Shown piece after piece: positions 4,863 to 46,413 of a stretch of DNA of 64,000 nucleotides. Source of the DNA: Candidatus Doudnabacteria bacterium (GTDB lineage Bacteria; Patescibacteriota; Doudnabacteria; UBA920; O2-02-FULL-48-8); NCBI GenBank assembly GCA_016182875.1, contig JACPFQ010000004.1, forward strand, positions 99,203 to 163,202, in the 5' to 3' direction. Positions within the stretch are counted from its first letter, which is position 1. Every line of letters starts with the position of its first letter. The translations under genes were made by a program, and so were the position numbers. The notes under the pieces were generated by a model. The model made no database searches and had not been told where the DNA came from. It worked only from the letters and a program-made list of their open reading frames with translations.

Positions 4863-7319
4863 ATGCCGAAGGAAATTGAAAATAGCCAAGCCATAGGCCA
4901 AATCAACCAAAGGCCCATTGAGCGGGAAATGGAAGAGTCTTACCTAGACTATGCCATGAGTGTGATTGTCATGCGGGCCCTTCCCGACGTCCGAGACGGC
5001 TTAAAGCCGGTGCACAGAAGAATACTCTATGCCATGTCGGAGCTGGGGTTGCGTTCCAGCGCCAAATTTAGGAAATCGGCCGCAGTGGTGGGAGAAGTTT
5101 TGGCCAAATACCATCCGCACGGCGACGTGGCGGTTTATGACTCACTCGTCCGGCTCGCGCAGGATTTCGCGATGCGCTATCCGCTCGTCGACGGGCAGGG
5201 CAATTTTGGTTCCATGGATGGAGACGCTCCCGCCGCCATGCGCTATACCGAAGCGCGGATAACCCGGCTGGCAGAGGAAATGCTCGTTGATTTGGAAAAA
5301 GAAACGGTTGACTGGATGGACAATTACGACGCTACCCGGAAAGAACCGAAGGTTATGCCGGCCAAACTGCCCCAGCTTTTGCTAAACGGCACTCTGGGAA
5401 TCGCGGTGGGCATGGCCACCGATATTCCCCCCCATAACTTGGGCGAAATCGCGGATGCCGCCGTCAAACTCATCGACGACCCCAAGGCGACCACCGAAGA
5501 TTTATTGGAACATGTCAAAGGCCCTGACTTTCCAACCGGCGGCTTCATATATGACTGGAACGGGATCAAACAAATTTACGCCACTGGCAAGGGGCCTATT
5601 GTCATGCGCGGCCGGACAGAAATAATCGAAGAGAAGGGCCAGCATAAAATCATCATCAATGAAATTCCCTACCGCGTGAACAAAGCCACGCTTTTGGAGC
5701 AGTTTGCGGGATTAGTTAAGGAGAAAAAAGTGGAGGGCATAAAAGATTTGCGGGACGAATCGGATAAAGACGGGGTAAGAATAGTAATCGAATTGAAAAA
5801 AGAAGCCTTGCCCAACAAAATTCTAAACCAGCTTTTTAAATACTCGAGCCTCCAGGAAACATTTCACGTCAACATGCTCGCGCTCGTCGACGGCATTGAG
5901 CCGCGGGTGCTTAACTTAAAAAACATTTTGGAGTATTACATCATCCACCGCCTGGAAGTCGTGCGCAGGCGGTCAGAATTCGACTTGGCCCGGGCGCGGG
6001 ACCGCGCGCACATCCTGGAGGGTTTAAAAAAGGCTTTAGACCATATCGACGCCGTAATCACGACAATCAAGAAGTCCAACACCACCGAAGAGGCGCATGC
6101 GGCGTTGATGAGCAGATTTAAATTAAGCGACAAGCAAGCTACGGCCATCCTTTTGATGCAGCTGCGGGCCCTGGCCGGACTCGAGCGGAAAAAAATCGAT
6201 GACGAACTAAAGGAAAAAAAGCAGCAAATCGAAGAGCTGCTAAGCCTGCTTGGCTCCGAGAAAAAGATGCGGGCTGTGATTAAGAACGAACTTAGCGAGC
6301 TGAAGACAAAATACGGAAACGACCGCAAAACGACCTTGATAAAAACACCCATCGGTGAATTCAAGGTCGAGGACCTTATTCCCGAAGAACAAACCATCGT
6401 GATTATCACCAAATCCGGATACGTTAAGCGCGTCCCGCCGCAAACATATAAAACCCAAGGCCGGGGAGGCAAGGGTGTAATCGGCATGACCACGAAAGAA
6501 GAAGACGTGGTCGAGTGGCTGATTACGACCAACACTCACGACGATATTCTGTTCTTCACGAACAAGGGCCGTGTGTTCCAAACCAAAGTCTATGAACTGC
6601 CGGAAGCGTCGAGAGTAGCGCGCGGACAGGCTTTGGTCAATTTCCTGGAGCTTCCCACGGACGAAACTGTCCGCAGTGTGCTGACCATTTCCAAAAAAAC
6701 TCCTCTGAAGTTTCTGGTCTTGGCGACCAGGCAAGGCCTAATCAAAAAAACCCCGATTGAAGAATTTGCAAAAGTCCGACGGTCAGGCTTAATTGCGATC
6801 AAATTAAAAGCCGGGGACGAACTGCGATTCGTCAAATATTCCACTGGCGTTGACGAAATCATCCTTTCGACCATCAACGGCCAAGCCATTCGCTTCGACG
6901 AAAAGGACGTGCGGAGCATGGGCCGGGCGACTTCGGGCGTGCGCGGCATCAGGCTCCGAAAGGGAGACGAGCTAATCAGCCTCGACCTCATTTCCAAAAA
7001 AGATGAGCCGAAAAACCTGCAACTTTTGATAGTCACGGAAAATGGCTTGGGCAAAAAAACCGACTTGTCACTGTACAAAAAACAGCGGCGGGGAGGTTCG
7101 GGAATCAAGACTTTGAAGGTCACGCCCAAAACCGGCAAGATCGAGTCCATGCATGTCGTCAATAAAACCGAAGAGCACGACCTCGTGGTCTTGTCCAAAA
7201 ATGGACAGGCGCTTCGCACTCCAATTGCCAAAATCTCAACGTTAGGCCGCGCCACGCAAGGTGTGCGCATCATGACCTTGGAAGACAAAGATAAGGTTGC
7301 TTCAACAACGCTGATATAA
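4863..7319 (+). CDS. gyrA: DNA gyrase subunit A
   Basis: [27 protein letters not shown] and the downstream topoisomerase IIA motifs; 818 aa. Confidence 0.95.
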
Positions 7320-9261: not shown

Positions 9262-10002
9262 ATGAGCGGGCACAGCAAATGGGCGCAAATCAAACGGCAA
9301 AAAGCAGTCACCGACGCCAAACGCGGCTCGCTGTTTACGAAGCTGGCCAAGAACATCACGGTGGCTGTGCGCGAAGGCGGGGGAACGGACCCTTCATTCA
9401 ACTTTAAGTTGCGCATGGCCATTGAGCAGGCGCGCGACGCCGCCATGCCCAACGAAAACATTGACCGCGCCGTCAAACGCGGCAGTGGAGAAGGAAAAGA
9501 GGCGATTGAGCAAGTGGCTTACGAAGGCTATGGGCCAGGAGGGTCGGCATTTATCGTGGAGGCGGTCACAGACAACAAAAACCGAACGACTGCCAATGTC
9601 CGAAGTATTTTTGACAAGCATGGCGGACGATTAGGCGAACAAGGATCCGTTGGTTGGATGTTCGAATCCAAAGGGCAGATCCTGATTGAAAACTCCGCCT
9701 TCGCTAAAGCTTCGGCGGACAAGCAGCCTGGCAATCTCGCACTCGAGCTGATTGACCAAGGGGTCGAGGACGTAAAAGAAACTGAAAACGGCTTGGAAGT
9801 TTATACGCTTCCCCTTGACTTGGAAAAAACCAAGAAATTCATTGAGGACAAAAAAATCAAAATCTTAAGCTCTGAGCTAATCATGCGCCCGGCGCAAAAC
9901 CTGGAAGTCGCAGAACAGGATAAGAAAAAAGTCCAGAATCTAATCAATGCCCTGCAAGACGATGATGACGTAGTAAACGTCCATAGCAACGTTAATTTGT
10001 AA
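9262..10002 (+). CDS. yebC: YebC/PmpR-family probable transcriptional regulator
   Basis: MSGHSKWAQIKRQK...GGTDPSFNFKLR signature. Confidence 0.9.
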   Translation: MSGHSKWAQIKRQKAVTDAKRGSLFTKLAKNITVAVREGGGTDPSFNFKLRMAIEQARDAAMPNENIDRAVKRGSGEGKEAIEQVAYEGYGPGGSAFIVEAVTDNKNRTTANVRSIFDKHGGRLGEQGSVGWMFESKGQILIENSAFAKASADKQPGNLALELIDQGVEDVKETENGLEVYTLPLDLEKTKKFIEDKKIKILSSELIMRPAQNLEVAEQDKKKVQNLINALQDDDDVVNVHSNVNL

Positions 10003-10086
10003 TTTTAAATTATCAATTTTAAATATAATTTTTATTATTTAAATATTTTATTTAAAATTTAAAACTATAAATTTAAAATTTTTCTC
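10003..10086. other. Almost pure A+T spacer (~84 bp) with TTTAAA/AAATTTAAAA repeats between yebC and ruvC
   Basis: Only three non-A/T bases across the tract; repeated ttaaat/aatttaaaa units. Confidence 0.5.
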
Positions 10087-19597: not shown

Positions 19598-19767
19598 GGG
19601 TAAACTGTTAATTAAAAATTACGGATTACGGGTTACGGATTTTTATACCGACGTTCCCCACAAGCTAAAAACAACAAGTTAAATAATCTAATTCGATAAT
19701 CCGCAATCCGTAATTAATAATTCCAACAAATACACAAACCCACAGTTTCTATTACCACTATTATTTT
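19598..19767. other. dnaA-dnaN intergenic region with inverted TTACGGAT-type repeats flanking an AT-rich core; alternative oriC candidate
   Basis: ttacggattacgggttacggatt ... aatccgcaatccgtaat (imperfect inverted repeats); TTCCCCACA and AACCCACAG as weak DnaA-box-like 9-mers. Confidence 0.3.
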
Positions 19768-20874
19768 TTGAAGACCATTATGAAAGTAGTATGCACCAAA
19801 GATAACTTAAGAAGAGGCCTGTTTGCCGTAAGCCGGGTGGTCGGGAGCGGAAACCCGTTGCAGGTTTTGAATAACATTTTGGTCAAAACCGACCAGGGGC
19901 GGGTCAAGCTATCTTCCACCAATCTTGAAATTGGAGTCAACACCTGGATTGGCGGAAAGATAGAAGAGGAGGGGGCGCTGACCGTGCCGGCCAGGCTGAT
20001 GAATGAATATATAAATAACCTGCCGGCTGACAAGGTTCTCATTACGGTTAAGGACACGGTTCTAAGCTTGGAGTCAGAGAATTATCACACGAATATCAAG
20101 GGGCTTTCGTCAGAAGATTTCCCCCTAATTCCACAGGTACTGGACGAGCCATACACCAAAGTTGACTCCGATGAGCTTAAATCAGCGCTTGCTGAAACAG
20201 TTTGGGCTGCGGCCAACAACGAGACCCAACCCGAGATTTCGGGGATATTTGTCGCTTTCGAGGATAACAAATTAAGGATTGCCGCCACTGACCGGTACCG
20301 CCTGGCAGAAAGAGTCGTGCCGCTTGCTGCTGCGGTCGCCACAAATAAAGAAGCTATAATTCCATCAAGGACAATCGGCGAGCTTTATAAAATACTTAGC
20401 CTGGGCAAGGGTGGGGTAGAAATTTACTTTTCGGAATCCCAGGTCTTGTTTAAGTTCGACGAGACCGAAATCATCTCACGCCTCATAGACGGCAACTATC
20501 CTGACTACCGCCAGATTATTCCGAAGACCTTTAAGACCGAAGCCGAGGTCGGGAAGTCAGAACTGCTTCACGCGCTCAAGGCAGCAAGCTTGTTTGCTCC
20601 TGACTCAAATAACGTCCAGGTGGAAGCGGGCAAGACCGAGCTGACAGTCGCCGCTTCGTCCGCCGCTGCCGGCGAAAACGTCACCAAGGTCGCAGCAGCA
20701 GTCAAGGGAGATAGCAACAGCGCAGTGTTCAACTTTCGATATCTCATCGATTGCCTCAACGCCTTGCCGGAAGAAAAAGTAATTCTTAAGATGATTAATG
20801 ACGCTTCGCCGGCCATGCTGCTGCCAGCCGGCCGCGATAATTATTTATACATCGTAATGCCAATTAAGCTGTAA
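19768..20874 (+). CDS. dnaN: DNA polymerase III beta sliding clamp
   Basis: MKVVCTKDNL... three-domain clamp architecture; 368 aa. Confidence 0.9.
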   Translation: MKTIMKVVCTKDNLRRGLFAVSRVVGSGNPLQVLNNILVKTDQGRVKLSSTNLEIGVNTWIGGKIEEEGALTVPARLMNEYINNLPADKVLITVKDTVLSLESENYHTNIKGLSSEDFPLIPQVLDEPYTKVDSDELKSALAETVWAAANNETQPEISGIFVAFEDNKLRIAATDRYRLAERVVPLAAAVATNKEAIIPSRTIGELYKILSLGKGGVEIYFSESQVLFKFDETEIISRLIDGNYPDYRQIIPKTFKTEAEVGKSELLHALKAASLFAPDSNNVQVEAGKTELTVAASSAAAGENVTKVAAAVKGDSNSAVFNFRYLIDCLNALPEEKVILKMINDASPAMLLPAGRDNYLYIVMPIKL

Positions 20875-22013
20875 TGAAGCTGGAAAGCATTGCTTTAGAA
20901 AATTTCCGCAACTACTCAAAAATCGAGGTCAATATAAATTCCGACCTCGTTTTGATTTTGGGGGCGAACGCCTCCGGCAAGACCAATTTTTTGGAAAGCA
21001 TTTATTTTTTGTCCCGTTTGAAGTCGTTCCGCAGCCCAGACCAGTTTCTTGTTAAAATCGGAGAGAACTATTTTAAGCTGGCGGCAAATGTCATTGCGAG
21101 GCCGGACTTGATCCGGCCGAAGCAATCTCATGGAGAGATCGCCGCGTCGTCCCGCCAAGGCGGGACTCCTCGCGATGACCAAGAAAAAGACCTAGAAGTT
21201 ATAGTCCAAGTCACCCCTATTTTAAAGCGCAGCTTTAAACTTAACGGCCAGAAAATCAAGCGCGGGCTTTGGCAAAGTTTTGCCGCGGTGCTGTTCATTC
21301 CCACTGACCTGAATTTGTTTTCTTTGGGTCCGTTATTGAGGCGAAGATACCTAGATGACACTTTATCCCAAGTCAGCAAAAATTATGCTTTTGATTTAGT
21401 TTCTTTGGACCATGTACTTGGTCAGCGCAAGGCCTTGCTGGAAAAAATAGCACTTCAGCAAGCCCAGCGTGAGGAGCTAAGCTTCTGGAACGAGCAGCTG
21501 ATTACTTTGACTTTAAGCATCGGCCAGGAGCGGAAATGTTTTTTGGATTTTTTAAACGAGCGGTTGAACTCGGTCTATTCGCAGTTGTCCGGTTTCAAAA
21601 ATAAATTCGCGGTTGAATACAAAACTGATGCTCAGGGCGACCTGCATAAACTGATCAAAGAGCATGAGGGGGCGGAGGTTAGGTCCGGCCAAAACCTCAT
21701 AGGACCGCATCGGGAAGACTTTGTCCTTAACAAAGACGGATTGTTGAATGTTTATAATTCATCCCGCGGCGAGCTCCGCTCCCAAATCTTGGCGATTAAG
21801 TTTTTACAAGCTGAGTACCTGAACAGCCACGACTTCAAGCCAATTATCTTTTTGGACGATGTTTTTTCCGAGCTCGACGAGGAGCGCCGGATTAAATTAC
21901 TGGAGAATCTTTCTGGCCACCAGATTTTTATCACGACCACCGAAGAGCACCACTTACCGGAAATAAAACAAGCGCAAAAGTTAAAAGTCGAGAATGGACA
22001 GTTCCTCCCCTGA
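20874..22013 (+). CDS. recF: DNA replication/repair protein RecF
   Basis: Walker A (LGANASGKTNFLESI) and a signature/Walker B region near the C-terminus. Confidence 0.9.
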   Translation: MKLESIALENFRNYSKIEVNINSDLVLILGANASGKTNFLESIYFLSRLKSFRSPDQFLVKIGENYFKLAANVIARPDLIRPKQSHGEIAASSRQGGTPRDDQEKDLEVIVQVTPILKRSFKLNGQKIKRGLWQSFAAVLFIPTDLNLFSLGPLLRRRYLDDTLSQVSKNYAFDLVSLDHVLGQRKALLEKIALQQAQREELSFWNEQLITLTLSIGQERKCFLDFLNERLNSVYSQLSGFKNKFAVEYKTDAQGDLHKLIKEHEGAEVRSGQNLIGPHREDFVLNKDGLLNVYNSSRGELRSQILAIKFLQAEYLNSHDFKPIIFLDDVFSELDEERRIKLLENLSGHQIFITTTEEHHLPEIKQAQKLKVENGQFLP

Positions 22014-22046
22014 TACCCCCTCTAACTCCCCCTTCCAGGGGGAGAA
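22013..22046 (+). terminator. recF terminator hairpin that is also a minimal copy of the palindromic-element terminal repeats (TAACTCCCCC-ttcca-GGGGGAGaaTTA)
   Basis: CCCCC-TTCCA-GGGGG stem-loop followed by aattatttttct; its ends match those of the elements inside uvrB and valS. Confidence 0.55.
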
Positions 22047-22141
22047 TTATTTTTCTAAAAATTAGACAAATCAAAAGAGCGAGGCCGACCCATACGGGGT
22101 CAAACCTCGCCCTCTCGTCCGGTCGAATGACCGGAACGTGT

Positions 22142-29128: not shown

Positions 29129-29219
29129 GAATTTTGAATGATTAATTTTGAATTTTGATTCAAATTCGAATTTCAGAAATTAGAATATTCATTCGAAATT
29201 CTAAAATCGAAATTCAAAA
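29129..29219 (-). repeat. Copy 2 of the AT-rich promoter/leader cassette (between the ruvB stop and the small membrane-protein gene)
   Basis: gaattttgaatgattaattttgaattttgattcaaattcgaatttcagaaattagaatattcattcgaaattctaaaatcgaaatt... Confidence 0.6.
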
Positions 29220-30257
29220 TTATAATAAAGTCTCTCCTTTGGTTTCTTTTGCCGTAACTTTCAAATGCTCATAGGCCGCTGGCGTGGCTACGCGTCCTTT
29301 GGGTGTGCGGGCGATGAAGCCGAGCCTTAAGAGGTAAGGCTCGTAAACATCTTCCAAGGTTTCGGCTTCTTCCGAGGTCGCGGCGGCCAAGGATGTAATC
29401 CCCACCGGCCCGCCGCCGAATTTTTCGATAATGGTCAGAAGCATGCGCCGGTCGTTGGCGTCCAGTCCCAGGCTGTCGACCTCCAGCATGTCCAAAGCTT
29501 CCTGCGCCACCGAATCGATGATTCGCCCGGCGGCTTTGACCTGGGCGTAGTCGCGCACGCGCTTGAGCAGTCGATTGGCGATTCTGGGAGTTCTCCTCGC
29601 CCTGCGGGCGATTTCTTTCCGCCCGCCTTCGTTTATCTTGATTTTCAAAATATTGGCCGCCCGCTCAATGATTTTTTCGATTTCATCTTCTTCGTAATAG
29701 TCAAGCCGCAGAGTGGAGCCAAACCGGTCGCGAAGCGGAGAAGAAATAAGTCCGATCCGGGTCGTGGCGCCGATCAATGTAAATTTGGGAAGGTCAAGAC
29801 GCAGCGCTTTTGCTCCGGCGCCTTTTCCCAGGACAATATCCAAGCAGTAGTCCTCCATAGCCGGGTAAAGAATTTCTTCGACGACCTTGTTTAGGCGGTG
29901 GACCTCGTCGATGAACAAAACGTCATTGGGTTCAAGGCTGGTTAGGAGAGAGGCGAGATCCCCGGTTTTTTCTATGGCCGGGCCAGAAGTGATTTTGATG
30001 GCCACCCCGATTTCGCGGGCGATGATGTGGGCGAGCGTGGTCTTGCCCAGTCCCGGCGGCCCGTAGAGCAGAATATGCTCCAGCGTTTCCTTTCTTTTTT
30101 TTGCGGCATCAATGAAGATTTTGAGGTTGTCCTTGATTTTGGTTTGCCCGACGTACTCATTCAAGCTTTGCGGCCTCAGCGTTGCCTCAAAAAACCCTTC
30201 ATCTTTGGTTTGTTCTGGGTTGATGATGTCTATTTCTTCAGTGTTGGTGTTAATCAT
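29220..30257 (-). CDS. ruvB: Holliday junction branch-migration helicase RuvB
   Basis: AAA+ Walker [19 protein letters not shown]; RuvB C-terminal winged helix. Confidence 0.95.
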
Positions 30258-42406: not shown

Positions 42407-44539
42407 TCACTTAAACTTATGCCTCTTCATTCTTGTCTTCTCTCGAATTGCCGAAATTTGGTCGCGCAAGGCTGCGGCTTTTTCGAAATCCAAATTCCTG
42501 GCCGCCAAATCCATCTGATCGCGCAGTTCTTCCACCAGGTATGCGATTTCTTGCCTGCTCATTTTCGTTAAATCAATCCCTGATTCCTGATTCTTGATTC
42601 CTGATTCTATCTTCATGCCTGCCAGCCGAGATTCCTTAACAGCTTTCTGGATGCTCGCCGGAATGATGCCGTGCTTCTTGTTATATTGTTCCTGGATTTT
42701 GCGGCGGCGGGCGACCTCATCCATGGCCCGCTTCATCGAGCCGGTAACCTGGTCTGCGTACATGATGACGCGGCCATCGATGTGCCGGGCCGCGCGGCCC
42801 ATGGTTTGGATGAGCGAAGTGTCCGAGCGCAGGAATCCTTCCTTATCCGCGTCCAAAATCGCGACCAATGACACTTCCGGCAAGTCCAATCCTTCCCGCA
42901 GTAAATTTATCCCCACGACCACGTCATAAACTCCCAAGCGTAAGTCTCTCAAAATTTCCAGTCTCTGCAGGGTTTCAATGTCAGCATGGAGGTAATGAAC
43001 CTTGACCCCGTATTCAGCCAAATAATTGGAAAGTTCTTCAGCCATGTTTTTGGTCAGAGTCGTAACCAAAACCCGCTGGCTATTTTTTACCCGATTTTGG
43101 ATTTCCTCCATAAGGTCGTCTATTTGATTTTTGGTCGGCCGAATTTCGATTTCCGGATCCAAGAGGCCGGTGGGCCGGATTAACTGCTCGGCGACCTGCT
43201 TGGAAGCTTTTATCTCGCGCTCTTTGGCGGGCGTGGCAGAGACAAAAATCGTTTGATCGGTTTTTTTTTCGAATTCTTCGAATTTCAGCGGCCGGTTGTC
43301 TAGGGCGCTCGGCAATCTGAAGCCGTAGTCGACCAGAGTTTGTTTGCGGGCTGAATCGCCTTCATACATGCCGTTTATTTGCGGCAGGGTGATGTGGGAT
43401 TCGTCGATGAACAGCAAGAAGTCATCCGGAAAATAATCGAGCAGGGTCGAGGGCGGCTCTCCGGGCTTGCGGAAGTCCAAGTGGCGGGAATAATTTTCGA
43501 TGCCGTTAACAAACCCGGTTTCAATCATCATTTCGATGTCAAAGTTGGTGCGCTGTTCGATTCTTTGGGCTTCTAGGAGTTTGTCTTGACTTTTGAAAAA
43601 TTTAACCTGCTCAGCAAGCTCTGCCCGAATGTTTTCGATGGCGGCAAGCATTTTTTCCCTCGGGGTCACGAAATGCTTGGCTGGGAAGATGGTGAGTTGG
43701 CTTAGAGACGGATCGTTTTTAGACCGTAACTCCCCCGCTTTGCCTAATGCCTTTGCTCCCCCTCTTATCCTAAGAGGGGGTTTGTTTTCAGTCTTATCCC
43801 CCCTTGGAACAAGGGGGGATAAAGGGGGGTTAGAAGCAGAGGCTAAATCCTCCCCGGTCAGCGGATCATGTAAACTAATTTTCTCAATCTCGTCCCCATA
43901 AAAATTAATGCGATAGACTTTGTCTTCAGATGCAGGGATTATTTCTACCACGTCTCCACGTACCCTGTAAGTTCCTCTTCGAAGTTCGACGTCATTGCGC
44001 ATGAACTGCAGGTCAGTCAGCCGGCGCAAAAACTTGTCGCGCTTGATTTTGGCCCCGACTTTGATGGGGACGGAAAGCTCCAGGTAGTCGCCTGGGTTGC
44101 CCAGGCCGTAGATGCAGGAGACCGACGCGACAATCAAGACGTCTTGGCGACTAAGCAAACTTTGCGTGGCGGCGTTGCGAAGTTTGTCGATTTCTTCGTT
44201 GATTTCCGTTTCTTTCTCGATATAGGTGTCGCTTCGCGGAATGTACGCTTCCGGCTGGTAGTAATCGTAGTAGGAAACGAAATAATGCACGGCGTTGTCC
44301 GGGAAAAAATCCTGGAATTCCGAAGCCAGCTGGGCGGCCAGAGTTTTGTTATGCGAGATTACGAGGGTCGGTTTTTGGACAAGTGCTACGATGTTGGCCA
44401 TGGTGAAAGTCTTGCCGCTGCCCGTGACCCCGAGCAAAGTTTGGTAGCGGTAATTTTTTTTGAGGCCCGCAGCTAGCTTTTCGATCGCCTGCGGCTGGTC
44501 GCCCGAAGGTTTGAATGGTGACTGAAGCTGGAATTTCAT
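42407..44539 (-). CDS. uvrB: Excinuclease ABC subunit B, carrying an in-frame ~40-aa insertion encoded by a palindromic element
   Basis: UvrB helicase motifs throughout; the inserted segment [46 protein letters not shown] sits between the conserved DPLTGE and [13 protein letters not shown]. Confidence 0.93.
43727..43832. mobile_element. MITE-like palindromic element inserted in frame inside uvrB
   Basis: Terminal repeats TAACTCCCCCGCTTTG ... GGGGGGTTA; internal perfect hairpins CCCCCTCTTA-tcc-TAAGAGGGGG and ATCCCCCCTTG-gaa-CAAGGGGGGAT. Confidence 0.55.
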
Positions 44540-44740
44540 CCAGGTACTAGAAATTTGACTTAATTGTTCGACCGCTTAAGGTCTTTCTTCTAGCCGGTCG
44601 AAAATTAATATCGCGATATGTTTTTGATTGAGCGTTCTTTGCCTGAAAAACATAATCGCGGTCAAAATTTCAGTACCTGGCATCGTAAATTTCATTGTAT
44701 CAAATTAGACTGCGCTATGCATAGCAGTTATAATAAGCTT

Positions 44741-45307
44741 ATGATTGGTTCAATTCGCGGGAAAGTTCAATACAAGTCCGGCAGTTACATCATCTTGGAT
44801 GCCAATGGAGTGGGCTACAAAATTTTTGTCATCCCGCCCCTGCTCCTTAGTCTCAAGCAAAATCAGGATTTGGCCCTGGTGATTCATACTTATGTGCGGG
44901 AAGACCAGATTTCTTTGTATGGGTTCGAATCGCTTCCGGAGTTGGAATTTTTTGAACTGCTCTTGACCGTTTCCGGCATCGGCCCCAAATCCGCTTTGGG
45001 AATCATGTCGCTTGCCGGCCTGGAGATGATTAAGTCAGCCATCGTCAGCGAAGACCCTTCGGTGTTCACCAAAGTTTCGGGCATCGGCCGCAAAACCGCA
45101 GAAAGGGTGATCGTCGAGCTGAAAGAGAAACTGCGCGACGAATCGGAAAAGGTTCCAGTGGCCAAAGAGCATTCGGATGCGGTTGACGCCCTGTTGGCTT
45201 TGGGCTATACCCAGCAGGAAGCCAGAGATGCATTGAAGCAAGTGCCCAAGGAAATAACCACCCTATCGGAGAAAGTTAAAATTGCGCTGAAGAGTTTGAG
45301 TAAATAG
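44741..45307 (+). CDS. ruvA: Holliday junction branch-migration protein RuvA
   Basis: MIGSIRGKVQYKSGSYIILDANGVGYKIFV...; the track ORF begins upstream at 44618 and I prefer the ATG at 44741, which has a TATAAT just upstream. Confidence 0.85.
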   Translation: MIGSIRGKVQYKSGSYIILDANGVGYKIFVIPPLLLSLKQNQDLALVIHTYVREDQISLYGFESLPELEFFELLLTVSGIGPKSALGIMSLAGLEMIKSAIVSEDPSVFTKVSGIGRKTAERVIVELKEKLRDESEKVPVAKEHSDAVDALLALGYTQQEARDALKQVPKEITTLSEKVKIALKSLSK

Positions 45308-45410
45308 TGTTAATTCCTCCCCTAGAATAGGGGAGGTTAGGAGGGGTAGAGTACGAGCTTGAACCGTACCTCCCCTAGCCCCTCCTATTCTAGGAGGGGA
45401 ATTAAAATAT
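45308..45410. repeat. ~100-bp palindromic element (terminal inverted repeats TTAATTCCTCCCCTAGAATAGG / CCTATTCTAGGAGGGGAATTAA) filling the ruvA-femAB intergenic region
   Basis: Near-perfect 22-bp terminal inverted repeats plus internal sub-palindromes (GTACG...CGTAC). Confidence 0.5.
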
Positions 45411-46356
45411 GCTTTCAAATCTCACTCAAGAAGCCTGGGATAAAAAAGTAATCGAGCTGGGAGGCTCGATTTTGCAATCTTGGGCTTGGGGGGGATTCCA
45501 GCAAGCGTTGGGCAATAAAATCTACCGCCTTTCCGGTGAAACGTTTATAACGCTGGCAGTCGAGTTGCCGCTCAAAGCCGGCAAAAAATATCTTTATTGC
45601 CCCCGCGGGCCGTTGGGAGCTGTGGAAGAAGCCTTGGCAGATCTTAAAAATTTATCGGAGCAAGATCATGGCATTGTCTTTGCCCGCCTTGAGCCGAATA
45701 CGGCCCTGGATTTGCCTTCTGCCGCCAAAGAGGTCCAGCCCAAGCATAACTGGATGCTTAATATGGAAGGAAAAACACCGGAGCAATTGTTGATGGAGAT
45801 GAAGCCCAAAACTCGCTACAACATCAACCTGGCCCAGCGCAAAGGGGTGACTGTCCGCGAGGGGAGAAAAGAAGACTTGCTGGAAGTCTGGAAATTATTT
45901 TTGGAGACTGCTACGCGAAACAAATTCAGCCTGCATCCGCAGAATTATTACTGGCAGATGCTTGAAAGCTTGCCACCCAAGCATCTCAAAATTTTGATCG
46001 CGGAATACAAAGGCCAGATGCTTGCGGCTATGCTTGTAACTTTGTTCAGCGATGCCGCAACTTATTTGCATGGCGGCTCGGGCAATCAAATGAAAGAAGC
46101 TATGGCGCCGTATCTTCTGCACTGGGAAGCCATCAATTTGGCCAAAGATTTAGGATACAAACTTTACGACTTCGGCGGGGTCGCCCCGGCCGAAAAACAG
46201 GACCATTCTTGGGCCGGCGTTTCGCGCTTCAAAAAAAGCTTTGGGGGATTCGGAGTCGATTATCCCGGCGCTTACGATTTAGTTTTCTCCCCGGTTTGGT
46301 ATAATGTTTATAAACAAGCTCGTTTAGTTCGCAGGTTAGTAATAAGTAATAAGTAA
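45409..46356 (+). CDS. FemAB-family aminoacyltransferase (peptidoglycan interpeptide bridge formation)
   Basis: FemAB/GNAT-like fold motifs across 315 aa. Confidence 0.7.
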   Translation: MLSNLTQEAWDKKVIELGGSILQSWAWGGFQQALGNKIYRLSGETFITLAVELPLKAGKKYLYCPRGPLGAVEEALADLKNLSEQDHGIVFARLEPNTALDLPSAAKEVQPKHNWMLNMEGKTPEQLLMEMKPKTRYNINLAQRKGVTVREGRKEDLLEVWKLFLETATRNKFSLHPQNYYWQMLESLPPKHLKILIAEYKGQMLAAMLVTLFSDAATYLHGGSGNQMKEAMAPYLLHWEAINLAKDLGYKLYDFGGVAPAEKQDHSWAGVSRFKKSFGGFGVDYPGAYDLVFSPVWYNVYKQARLVRRLVISNK

Positions 46357-46413
46357 TTAGTAATAAGCATTCGTATTCTAATTACTCCTTACTAACCTCT
46401 TATTACTATTCTC

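Follow-up and report, generated by a model that had tools for sequence, protein, structure and literature searches.

The window analysed here, 64,000 nucleotides of DNA from a Candidatus Doudnabacteria bacterium, carries ruvA (44741–45307, plus strand; 188 amino acids from the ATG at 44741, with its stop codon at 45305–45307) followed by femAB (45409–46356, plus strand; ATG at 45409), which encodes a FemAB-family peptidoglycan bridge transferase (PF02388). Both genes are intact where they face one another, RuvA ending in its native C terminus (KVKIALKSLSK before the stop) and FemAB beginning with its native N terminus (MLSNLTQEAWD). A near-perfect palindrome of 96 nt (45310–45405) occupies all but 5 nt of the 101-nt spacer between them, the residue being TG at the left and AAT at the right. 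Its left terminal arm, TTAATTCCTCCCCTAGAATAGG (45310–45331), and the right partner, CCTATTCTAGGAGGGGAATTAA (45384–45405), are complementary at 20 of 22 positions, and these two arms are the only matches in the window at up to three mismatches (expectation 0.00 in 100 shuffles); a repeat finder extends them to 48 + 48 nt with zero gap and 77% complementarity. An inner sub-palindrome, GTACG/CGTAC, lies at 45351–45355 and 45365–45369. The initial annotation had described a palindrome of about 100 bp filling the spacer, with near-perfect 22-bp terminal inverted repeats and an internal GTACG...CGTAC, and these measurements bear it out in all three respects.

Folded as RNA with tools that consider Watson–Crick and G–U pairs only, the palindrome gives one long hairpin of −57.9 kcal/mol; 200 shuffled versions fold at −33.8 ± 3.5 kcal/mol and none is as stable (z = −6.82). 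The palindrome is thus far outside chance expectation. Its minimum-energy fold as single-stranded DNA consists of three separate hairpins. Coding capacity is nil beyond one spurious 51-amino-acid open reading frame (ORF) on the minus strand. Rfam 15 at gathering score reports two tRNAs across the window and no match to the palindrome, for which a lax E-value brings up merely sub-threshold microRNA-hairpin look-alikes; seven related loci give nothing, and these searches together rule out a known RNA family as its identity.

The element is built as two inverted terminal modules with a short centre. Each end is a 33-nt module that opens with a pyrimidine arm, either CCTCCCC or CCCCTCC; a loop and the complementary purine arm come next, then a linker of 3 nt (TTA or CTA), a purine box that mirrors the purine arm, and TA. 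The left module, CCTCCCCTAGAATAGGGGAGGTTAGGAGGGGTA, reads on the plus strand as a type a hairpin, CCTCCCC-TAGAATA-GGGGAGG (45316–45336; 9 bp counting the TA/TA pairs), the linker TTA between hairpin and box (45337–45339), and the box GGAGGGG with its TA (45340–45348), a candidate third strand for an intrastrand purine-motif triplex. On the minus strand, the right module has a type b hairpin, CCCCTCC-TAGAATA-GGAGGGG (45379–45399; CCCCTCC-TATTCTA-GGAGGGG in plus-strand reading), and the box GGGGAGG with TA (45367–45375; TA-CCTCCCC on the plus strand). The two modules face one another across a variable centre of 17–18 nt (45349–45366) with GTACG...CGTAC. At the extremes, TTAA occurs at 45310–45313 and again at 45402–45405, tentatively either a 4-bp target-site duplication or the outermost inverted repeat.

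The module layout is that of an intrastrand purine-motif DNA triplex with G·G:C, A·A:T and T·A:T triads, and the ends of the window element, to judge from their sequence only, would be able to form one. Across the family, all 31 distinct modules with a GGGGAGG arm have GGnGGGG as their box and all 48 with a GGAGGGG arm have GGGGnGG, so that the mirror rule holds in 79 of 79 (counts of distinct sequences, not of independent evolutionary events); the variable base n is A in 42, T in 35 and C in 2, A or T thus accounting for 77 of the 79. The rule extends to seven or more additional arm/box types, and 170 hairpin ends precede a perfect 7/7 mirror box, versus 13 under a direct-repeat model. Hairpin arms are complementary in 280 of 299 family members, with three covarying stem types. 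Two other readings of the box were rejected: a G-quadruplex, as the type GGGGGAG-TTA-GAGGGGG lacks four G-tracts and still complies with the mirror rule, and Watson–Crick pairing with the arm of the far end, which accounts neither for the common T variants (GGGGTGG) nor for modules that stand alone or are of the same type. Some of the TTA linkers have small additional GC hairpins nested within them. Within the window, a strict 7/7 search returns both modules of the ruvA–femAB element, the sites 22016–22044 and 43797–43829, and nowhere else (four modules, versus none in 100 shuffles). The window therefore holds one copy of this subfamily plus two related modules, and the kinship earlier proposed with a C-run/G-run element inside uvrB stands, in that these modules are of the same strict type.

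The order uvrB (on the opposite strand), ruvA, femAB is kept in four Doudnabacteria relatives, in which FemAB is 64–69% identical and ruvA encodes the RuvA Pfam domains. Their ruvA–femAB spacers measure 0, −4, 12 and −4 nt, against 101 nt in the window, and the element is absent from all four, while the C terminus of RuvA and the N terminus of FemAB are conserved. This filled-versus-empty comparison shows that the 96-nt element is an insertion, placed precisely at the junction of the ruvA stop codon with the femAB start codon. Because the genes overlap or abut in the relatives, ruvA and femAB form one operon with no room for a terminator or promoter. The suggestion that the palindrome might serve as the ruvA terminator or the femAB promoter finds no footing in the element itself: the stem runs into AAUAUG... 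with no T/U run, a terminator scan is empty on both strands, and a consensus scan for promoters finds no promoter-like site.

The insertion may nonetheless have local consequences. The element would be co-transcribed with both genes and would break their original translational coupling. Only 2 nt separate the end of the ruvA stop codon from the stem of the RNA hairpin, and a GGAGG in the right arm (45393–45397, plus strand), 11 nt before the femAB ATG and paired in the predicted hairpin, is the sole Shine–Dalgarno-like sequence available to femAB. The inserted DNA may thus supply the GGAGG that femAB now uses, concealed in a strong hairpin that ribosomes finishing ruvA may open. Such placement before a start codon is found in the window copy and in one other, upstream of scpA (locus L073), but a general role as Shine–Dalgarno donor was rejected: a start codon that opens an ORF follows 7 of 182 outer ends, a lower rate than the roughly 10% of a random-position control. 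These positional features, together with the great stability of the RNA hairpin and the agreement in orientation between complete miniatures and their flanking genes (15 to 3), would suit a host regulatory RNA that evolved for the operon as a ruvA terminator or attenuator, a femAB promoter or a translational control hairpin. We regard that origin as highly improbable and largely refuted by the empty spacers of all four syntenic relatives, by recurrence of the same sequence in unrelated gene contexts, by the missing U-tract, promoter or terminator consensus and Rfam family, by the scarcity of start codons after outer ends, and by tests on E. coli members of this class of repeat that showed neither promoter nor terminator activity (PMC4666352).

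The recurrent copies show what kind of insertion this is. The L073 copy, on another contig, is 97.9% identical over 94 nt including the centre; the rest of that locus has no further match to the window, and it may come from the source genome or from another one. A second copy (L002) is identical, again including the centre, and follows a NUDIX gene, taking in the final six codons and stop of that gene, and in a third locus (L087) a NUDIX gene 97% identical to that of L002 occurs without the element, giving a filled and an empty site. The NUDIX protein is known from short Logan contigs only, so that L002 may be a chimera that assembly created by joining sequences at the repeat. Breaks in assemblies at the edge or in the middle of the element are a further sign of repeated copies. 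Further afield, the hairpin is present at 68 loci in GTDB genomes; one metagenome-assembled genome (MAG) has 11 complete copies, 87% identical, in 97 kb of fetched DNA and another has 14, and within these families of 11–14 miniatures the centres are shared. Complete miniatures in Patescibacteria always combine one a end with one b end. Searches of IMG/VR by exact pattern and of phage and plasmid collections by blastn returned no match to the element, and carriage on phages or plasmids was set aside on that basis. Candidate target-site duplications are confined to two copies: the TTTA...TTTA that flanks the L073 copy is not self-complementary, whereas the TTAA flanks of the window copy are, and hence are ambiguous; a consistent duplication was looked for in older copies and not found. 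With empty sites in relatives, near-identical copies in other contexts and many copies in other Patescibacteria, we interpret the ruvA–femAB element as a MITE-like, dispersed multi-copy repeat and not a conserved single-copy terminator. Of the initial interpretation, then, the multi-copy MITE-like character and the link to the uvrB element are supported, and the terminator and promoter roles are not.

A candidate for the full-length form is found in another Doudnabacteria genome (L046), in which a cassette with similar ends contains a gene for a 119-amino-acid DUF559 protein, a Vsr-like PD-(D/E)xK nuclease. The ends of the window element match those of this cassette at 36 of 37 and 34 of 35 positions (one mismatch each), and because of this match we take the window copy to be a gene-less miniature of the DUF559 cassette, as its sequence suggests, standing to it as a MITE to its insertion sequence (IS) or a REPIN to its RAYT locus, with the short centre at the position of the gene. 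DUF559 genes were bracketed by modules at six hairpin-selected loci in four phyla (PF04480 E-values of 1e-28 to 1e-33), and at least six phyla have such genes placed precisely between the two end modules, one example of module-flanked genes being ycjD of E. coli. The association also holds in the opposite direction: five of five DUF559 homologues picked blind to their flanks have strict modules within 217 nt, with 11 such modules in the 7.9 kb of these loci versus none in 23.5 kb of control loci. When 1,499 ORFs of at least 60 amino acids from the fetched loci were clustered all against all, DUF559 was the sole recurrent gene bracketed by hairpins. The same clustering yielded no recurrent transposase adjoining the repeats, and a RAYT-like Y1 (HUH) transposase gene recurring in the fetched loci was not found. 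The catalytic D...ExD...H motif of the DUF559 proteins is invariant. No DUF559 gene was found within the 64-kb window, which, like the single copy of the subfamily there, counts against this reading. Neither the mirror-repeat (triplex) layout of the ends nor the connection to DUF559 had been mentioned in the initial annotation.

DUF559 is a widespread domain of unknown function; to our knowledge it is no transposase, and we know of no activity of any DUF559 protein on structures of this kind. It falls in the VSR/DUF559/DUF2726 clade of the PD-(D/E)xK superfamily, in a clan that includes the repair enzyme Vsr and homing endonucleases (PMC3424549).

The match between miniature and cassette ends could also arise if a full DUF559 cassette once lay between ruvA and femAB and lost its gene in place, so that the miniature never moved. 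Such decay has parallels, in a DUF559 pseudogene with an early stop at one locus (L023) and in the loss of free-standing Vsr-like endonuclease genes at fractured-gene loci, which leaves a hairpin behind (PMC2677866). What makes this quite improbable here is the 17–18-nt centre, which is not gene-derived and recurs unchanged in the scpA and NUDIX copies; the miniature was therefore copied as a unit, and the common centres within genome families of 11–14 miniatures tell the same way. On balance, what fills the spacer is probably a single insertion of a small palindromic repeat, non-autonomous and of the triplex/DUF559-cassette type.

The nearest known relatives of the element are the BoxC/PIT/TMECO repeats of E. 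coli and other bacteria, which belong to the intrastrand purine-motif triplex repeats of ITxF class II, known in E. coli since the 1990s and reportedly the subject of earlier work by Bachellier and Hofnung and by Hoyne and Maher; we know of no account of their origin and means of spread. They share with it a C-rich arm, loop, complementary G-rich arm, second loop of 3 nt (TTA in type A) and mirror G-rich arm; A or T in the third strand opposite A:T pairs; an intergenic, multi-copy distribution with copy numbers that vary widely between strains; and two module types that are often inverted to give an imperfect palindrome of about 85–100 nt. Inverted pairs of TMECO always combine the two module types (PMC4666352). 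Several differences set the window element apart. TMECO stems are 9 nt with CCCTCNCCC, whereas those of the window are 7 nt (8 with a T·A:T triad) with the consensus CCTCCCC/CCCCTCC, giving 7–8 triads and not 9, and the element departs from the TMECO consensus CCCTCNCCC N3-6 GGGNGAGGG N3 GGGNGAGGG. Its host is a member of the Patescibacteria (Doudnabacteria), and its insertion is evidenced directly by filled and empty sites. Its ends equal those of a DUF559 cassette, while in E. coli no mobility gene was reported with the repeats. For TMECO the triplex has been measured in vitro by CD and NMR (PMC4666352), whereas that of the window element is predicted. We consider the window element to be, on its sequence, a sister family of TMECO and not TMECO proper.

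In E. coli, TMECO number 9 lies about 165 nt downstream of ycjD. In a spread sample of 60 E. coli genomes, those with ycjD have 11–26 TM places (median 17) and those lacking it 1–12 (median 4), and every sampled genome with fewer than 11 TMs is ycjD-negative, a correlation that is confounded by phylogroup. At the single ycjD-negative sapF–fabI locus examined, a clean empty site for ycjD was not found; the locus is a larger rearrangement, with a different gene block (TetR plus RND efflux) next to fabI.

We tentatively propose that DUF559 proteins of the YcjD, Vsr-like type may be the missing protein partner of the BoxC/PIT/TMECO repeats across bacteria. The autonomous unit would consist of the gene and its two end modules of triplex type, with the gene-less inverted pairs as its miniatures. 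The nuclease would move or maintain the repeats by recognizing the hairpin or triplex into which single-stranded DNA folds. As a route of mobility, one that we put forward just as cautiously, the modules would fold as hairpins or triplexes once the DNA is single-stranded, the nuclease would recognize or nick them in trans, and the element would then be copied into T/A-rich sites such as TTAA or TTTA.

Spread or persistence without DUF559 is the competing account, whether through another enzyme (a RAYT-like Y1 or IS transposase) or through stalled replication and template switching where the triplex or hairpin forms, with DUF559 as a passenger homing into palindromes or a host nuclease that processes such structures. 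Holder et al. (2015) saw no mobility genes in the vicinity of E. coli TMECOs and put forward instability linked to replication (PMC4666352). Miniatures in two Saccharibacteria MAGs bear extra outer inverted repeats (TAGGACTTACGC...) that resemble conventional transposon ends, the nested GC hairpins of the TTA linkers suggest that the sites attract insertions, and ycjD-negative genomes still hold up to 12 TMs. We nevertheless judge this account unlikely: no transposase-like gene recurs beside the elements among the clustered ORFs, DUF559 sits exactly between end modules across phyla with ends nearly base-for-base those of the miniature, and ycjD is missing from all of the sampled E. coli genomes that are poorest in TMs.

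The proposed partnership of nuclease and repeat has a close parallel in REP/BIME/REPIN repeats and RAYT. There, too, short hairpin units are inverted in pairs to form hairpins of about 100 nt, many gene-less copies accompany a small nuclease gene that has the same units on either side, copies lie within genes including uvrB (PMC3733652), and orientation is biased relative to genes. The flanked gene differs, being a DUF559 PD-(D/E)xK nuclease here and an HUH Y1 transposase there, and the window unit has a third, mirror-repeat segment. An unpaired GTAG/CGTC tag at the foot of the hairpin was not found in the window element; a GTAG does occur in GGGGTAG at 45343–45349, but on the 3′ side of the box, where the long stem pairs it with CTAC or TAC. 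The nuclease itself recalls the free-standing Vsr-like homing endonuclease genes (Dassa et al. 2009, PMC2677866; I-Bth0305I, PMC3239194), which belong to the same clade (PMC3424549), are likewise small genes between or within host genes, and have a conserved hairpin just upstream of the start codon that may outlast the gene (PMC2677866). Those genes occur in phage-like DNA together with split inteins or group I introns, and each has one hairpin upstream, whereas DUF559 cassettes have mirror-repeat modules on both sides and gene-less miniatures that multiply within genomes. We are aware of no homing target or homing activity for DUF559. Correia elements of Neisseria and Rickettsia palindromic elements also resemble the window element, being about 100–150 nt long with terminal inverted repeats, showing filled and empty sites among relatives, lying between or inside genes, and being co-transcribed as strong hairpins that may provide signals for gene expression or add peptide segments in frame, as happens here with the uvrB copy; the window element differs in lacking a transposase-bearing parent IS, in having a target-site duplication that is no more than a candidate, and in its triplex-type module ends.

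For the ruvA–femAB locus itself, these results are mostly a clarification: the spacer represents an insertion that splits two translationally coupled genes and is no signal of the operon. For the repeats, they extend the class to the reduced genomes of Patescibacteria, with an in-frame insertion into uvrB as well; a non-exhaustive search of the literature found nothing on REP or MITE elements in Patescibacteria or on a link between DUF559 and BoxC/TMECO. That link, which draws on the genes between modules in at least six phyla, the matching ends of a miniature and a DUF559 cassette, and the higher TM count in ycjD-positive E. coli, may account for how the long-puzzling BoxC/PIT/TMECO repeats spread, and both the origin and spread of the repeats and the function of DUF559 become experimentally approachable in E. 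coli K-12. If true, it would amount to a REP/RAYT-like system built on another nuclease fold, with a DNA triple helix as the recognition structure.

The spacer between ruvA and femAB is filled by a near-perfect palindrome of 96 nt at window positions 45310–45405; sequence inspection, a repeat finder and folding thus confirm the palindromic element of the initial annotation. The ruvA stop codon lies at 45305–45307 and the ATG of the FemAB-family gene (PF02388) at 45409, leaving a gap of 101 nt of which the palindrome takes up 96. The 22-nt terminal arms first described (45310–45331 and 45384–45405) are complementary at 20 of 22 positions, and with up to three mismatches the arm is found at two sites only in the 64-kb window (0.00 expected). 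The inner GTACG/CGTAC sub-palindrome is also present, and in the output of the repeat finder the arms reach 48 nt each and meet without a gap. As RNA, the element is predicted to fold into a single long hairpin (−57.9 kcal/mol, z = −6.8); as single-stranded DNA, in which G-T pairs weigh less, the best fold consists of three separate hairpins. Neither the element nor related loci had a match in Rfam.

The window FemAB is 100% identical to the protein of one Candidatus Doudnabacteria MAG, the next relatives standing at 64–69%. Four FemAB relatives, fetched with their neighbouring genes for comparison of the spacer, all keep the order uvrB (minus strand), ruvA, femAB and all lack the element, with ruvA and femAB overlapping by 4 nt (two relatives), abutting (one) or lying 12 nt apart (one). 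Since the RuvA C terminus (...KVK.ALK.L.K-stop) and the FemAB N terminus (M.SNL.QEAWD) are conserved in the window and the relatives, the extra DNA leaves both the stop before it and the start after it intact. This comparison of filled and empty sites shows that the element entered the ruvA–femAB junction by insertion in the window lineage, and its absence from the relatives excludes a single-copy sequence kept among them.

Further copies occur in unrelated surroundings. A scan of JGI metagenomes with a centre-specific pattern returned one (L073), 97.9% identical over 94 nt and placed between an unrelated gene and scpA, with nothing else common to that contig and the window. On the short-read contig L002, the identical element has another gene upstream, encoding a NUDIX hydrolase, and takes in the final six codons and the stop of that gene (LIPPLE-stop); in L087, a NUDIX gene of 97% identity stands without the element, and the next gene begins after 2 nt. 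If L002 is chimeric at the repeat, as it may be, the sample must nonetheless contain a second identical copy. Short-read contigs with the identical FemAB gene break mid-palindrome in L001 and L003 and precisely at the left edge in L004; L001–L004 are Logan contigs of SRR121134xx, De Bruijn assemblies of source-like samples. In GTDB, scanned at one genome per species, 68 loci matched the degenerate hairpin CCYCYCCTAGAATAGGRGRGG; most are in Saccharibacteria-labelled and Doudnabacteria MAGs and some in Bacteroidota, Desulfobacterota, Verrucomicrobiota (an Opitutales MAG) and one Pseudomonadales MAG. One MAG holds 11 complete elements in 97 kb fetched around hits, mutually 87% identical, centres included, and a second holds 14 in the DNA fetched around hits; the viral contigs, phage records and plasmids searched contained no copy. 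That the same non-genic centre recurs in three contexts, and that within-genome families share their centres, shows that these gene-less miniatures are copied as units. Together, the empty sites and the copies elsewhere bear out the MITE-like reading. The hrcA–grpE spacer holds a family element in three different genomes (L011, 1487–1622; L034, 5850–5932; L071, ~6058–6150), which suggests either vertical inheritance of an old insertion or a site preference.

Every complete element in Patescibacteria carries a type a hairpin (CCTCCCC-loop-GGGGAGG) at one end and a type b hairpin (CCCCTCC-loop-GGAGGGG) at the other. Arm complementarity holds in 280 of 299 hairpins, and there are three covarying types of stem. 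On the inner side of each hairpin come first a linker of 3 nt, usually TTA, next a purine heptamer that in every case mirrors the purine arm of that hairpin, and finally TA. Counted as distinct sequences, not independent events, all 31 modules with a GGGGAGG arm continue with GG[A/T]GGGG and all 48 with a GGAGGGG arm continue with GGGG[A/T]GG, with A (42 modules), T (35) or C (2) opposite the arm's A. The rule also holds for at least seven other arm types in which the A is placed differently, GGGGGAG/GAGGGGG among them, and a perfect mirror match occurs at 170 hairpin ends, compared with 13 under a direct-repeat model.

An intramolecular purine-motif triplex (H-DNA) needs just such a purine mirror repeat after a pyrimidine–purine hairpin, its third strand running antiparallel to the purine arm in G.G:C, A.A:T and T.A:T triads. 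The alternation of A and T opposite the arm's A fits the A.A:T and T.A:T triads, and from these sequence rules, with the analogy of the E. coli TMECO repeats, the family modules would be expected to form triplexes. Watson–Crick pairing of the box with the arm of the other end fails for T variants, solo modules and same-type modules, and a G-quadruplex in place of the triplex cannot account for the GGGGGAG type. A strict search, for a 7-bp stem and 7/7 triads, finds four modules in the window—two in the element, one inside uvrB and one at 22016–22044—and none in 100 dinucleotide-preserving shuffles of it. The consistently different a and b ends may serve as left and right markers, or may make a long palindrome tolerable by keeping it imperfect. 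The hairpin–box linker is the exact site of extra, small GC-rich nested hairpins (for example, cccgcccgacgccgtcaggcgggcggg) in L022 (4303–4407) and L064 (5417–5513), and in Bacteroidota units a variable hairpin always stands there. In the MAG CAZGLK, miniatures (L010, L014, L017, L026, L030, L036, L037, L055, L065 and L068) carry a further inverted repeat, TAGGACTTACGC...GCGTAAGTCCTA, which lies ~20 nt beyond the triplex modules on their outer side; with it the element measures roughly 165 nt and resembles a composite or a second layer of ends.

This layout is that of TMECO, CCCTCNCCC N3-6 GGGNGAGGG N3 GGGNGAGGG with a second loop of TTA or CCG, described by Holder et al. (2015; PMC4666352). 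The repeat has been known since the 1990s as BoxC, and Hoyne and Maher's PIT element is the same. E. coli MG1655 has 23 copies, all intergenic, of which five occur as inverted pairs that always combine one type with the other; 262 proteobacterial genomes hold thousands of copies, cyanobacteria have similar G/C-rich motifs, and the motifs have been linked to rearrangement between strains (PMC4666352). The triplex is stable in vitro by circular dichroism and NMR; purine-motif triplexes are said in that report not to form in RNA, and mobility genes never to be found near the motifs (PMC4666352). The window element, an inverted pair of such modules, fits the structural definition, but its stems are shorter (7–8 triads) and its sequence differs, so that it does not match the TMECO consensus. 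By its matching layout, it belongs to a known kind, the BoxC/PIT/TMECO-type triplex palindromes, as a sister family newly found in another phylum. Earlier work cited by Holder et al. found TMECO without promoter or terminator activity (PMC4666352); this, with the close spacing of ruvA and femAB in the relatives, leaves the initial suggestion of a ruvA terminator or femAB promoter unsupported.

The insertion has instead swapped translational coupling of the 4-nt-overlap type for a 101-nt spacer. The sole Shine–Dalgarno-like sequence for femAB is now the right-arm GGAGG, which lies 11 nt upstream of the ATG and is base-paired in the predicted RNA hairpin. Only 2 nt separate the end of the ruvA stop codon from the stem, and ribosomes terminating on ruvA may therefore open it. 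Supply of a ribosome-binding site is not a trait of the repeat family.

Kinship with the C-run/G-run element in uvrB, proposed initially, is supported by a strict triplex-type module in both. UvrB (minus-strand gene 42407–44539) has an in-frame insertion of ~39–44 amino acids at 43730–43850, encoded by C-run/G-run hairpins and lacking in three relatives; its strict module, TCCCCCC-TTGGAACAA-GGGGGGA-TAAA-GGGGGG (43797–43829), is much like modules beside a Nostoc DUF559 gene. The solo module CTCCCCC-TGGAA-GGGGGAG-TTA-GAGGGGG-TA (22016–22044, minus strand, in the region 22001–22050) is preceded by TTCCTCCCC, and the plus-strand ORF 20874–22013 has its stop codon inside this feature, like the NUDIX copy in L002. 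Unrelated AT-rich imperfect palindromes with arms of 33–41 nt fill spacers at 46337–46408, 19610–19722, 29130–29221 and 9994–10080, one of them overlapping the femAB 3′ end. The divergent uvrB–ruvA spacer contains a 20-nt inverted repeat, CCAGGTACTAGAAATTTGAC / GTCAAAATTTCAGTACCTGG (44540–44559 / 44661–44680, arms 101 nt apart), upstream of a promoter-like TAGACT-17-TATAAT (44706–44734) and the likely ruvA start at 44741.

In six hairpin-selected loci, the end modules, instead of standing 17–70 nt apart, bracket a gene of ~115–120 codons: L046, L039 and L023 from Doudnabacteria, L043 from Saccharibacteria, L040 from Deltaproteobacteria and L047 from Chitinophagia. Five hold an intact DUF559 gene (PF04480, E-values 1e-28 to 1e-33) and the sixth has an early stop. 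The L046 cassette reads ttCCTCCCCtagaataGGGGAGGttaGGTGGGGTAG - 20 nt - ATG...DUF559...TAG - gttc - TACCACCCCtagCCCCTCCtattctaGGAGGGGaa; the left 37 nt of the window element match its left end at 36 of 37 positions and the right 35 nt its right end at 34 of 35, so the element corresponds to both cassette ends joined by a short centre. At the level of sequence, these matches show the element to be a miniature, lacking the gene, of a family of DUF559 cassettes whose ends are of the triplex type. The 64-kb window was found to hold no DUF559 gene.

All-against-all comparison of 1,499 ORFs of the fetched loci revealed DUF559 as the only recurrent hairpin-bracketed gene and no recurrent transposase. 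Against selection bias, five homologues (Nostoc, Nitrospinota, Uhrbacteria, Parcubacteria and an unclassified MAG) were chosen by protein search with their flanks unseen. Strict modules lay within 217 nt of the gene in all five, most within 50 nt, and these loci held 11 modules in 7.9 kb, compared with none in the loci of the FemAB relatives (23.5 kb). For many DUF559 homologues the only known source is a contig shorter than 2 kb; as this and the contig breaks at the palindrome show, the repeat class fragments metagenome assemblies. Ten DUF559 proteins from six phyla, 46–64% identical to that of L046, share an invariant D...ExD...H motif. The closest solved structure is an endonuclease-like protein (3hrl), and DUF559 falls in the Vsr clade of PD-(D/E)xK nucleases, which includes the homing endonuclease I-Bth0305I (PMC3424549). 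The case for a DUF559 role in the repeat family is correlative.

The E. coli DUF559 gene ycjD (L088; K-12, NC_000913.3 1351194–1351830) has a degenerate C-arm hairpin overlying its stop codon, a duplicate of its own 3′ end (roughly 60 nt) downstream and TMECO no. 9 (Table 1, PMC4666352) ~165 nt downstream. It is present in 3,378 of 5,426 complete E. coli genomes and absent from 38%; a genome has between 1 and 27 TMECO-like places. Among 60 genomes sampled at even spacing, those with ycjD (n = 37) had 11–26 places (median 17) and those without (n = 23) had 1–12 (median 4; Mann–Whitney p ~8e-10), a difference confounded by phylogroup and no proof of cause. No clean ycjD empty site was found, the one ycjD-negative locus examined being a larger rearrangement.

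We propose that the end modules would fold while the DNA is single-stranded, that a DUF559 nuclease acting in trans would recognise or nick the folded modules, and that insertion would occur into T/A-rich sites. The flanks read TTAA/TTAA at the window copy and TTTA/TTTA at the copy in L073; older copies showed no flanking duplication. Complete miniatures between co-directional genes point in the direction of the genes in 15 cases versus 3, and the DUF559 gene of the cassettes has the direction of the 15. None of the papers found in the literature searched links BoxC/TMECO to DUF559; the connection of DUF559 to triplex repeats appears undescribed, and it is directly testable.
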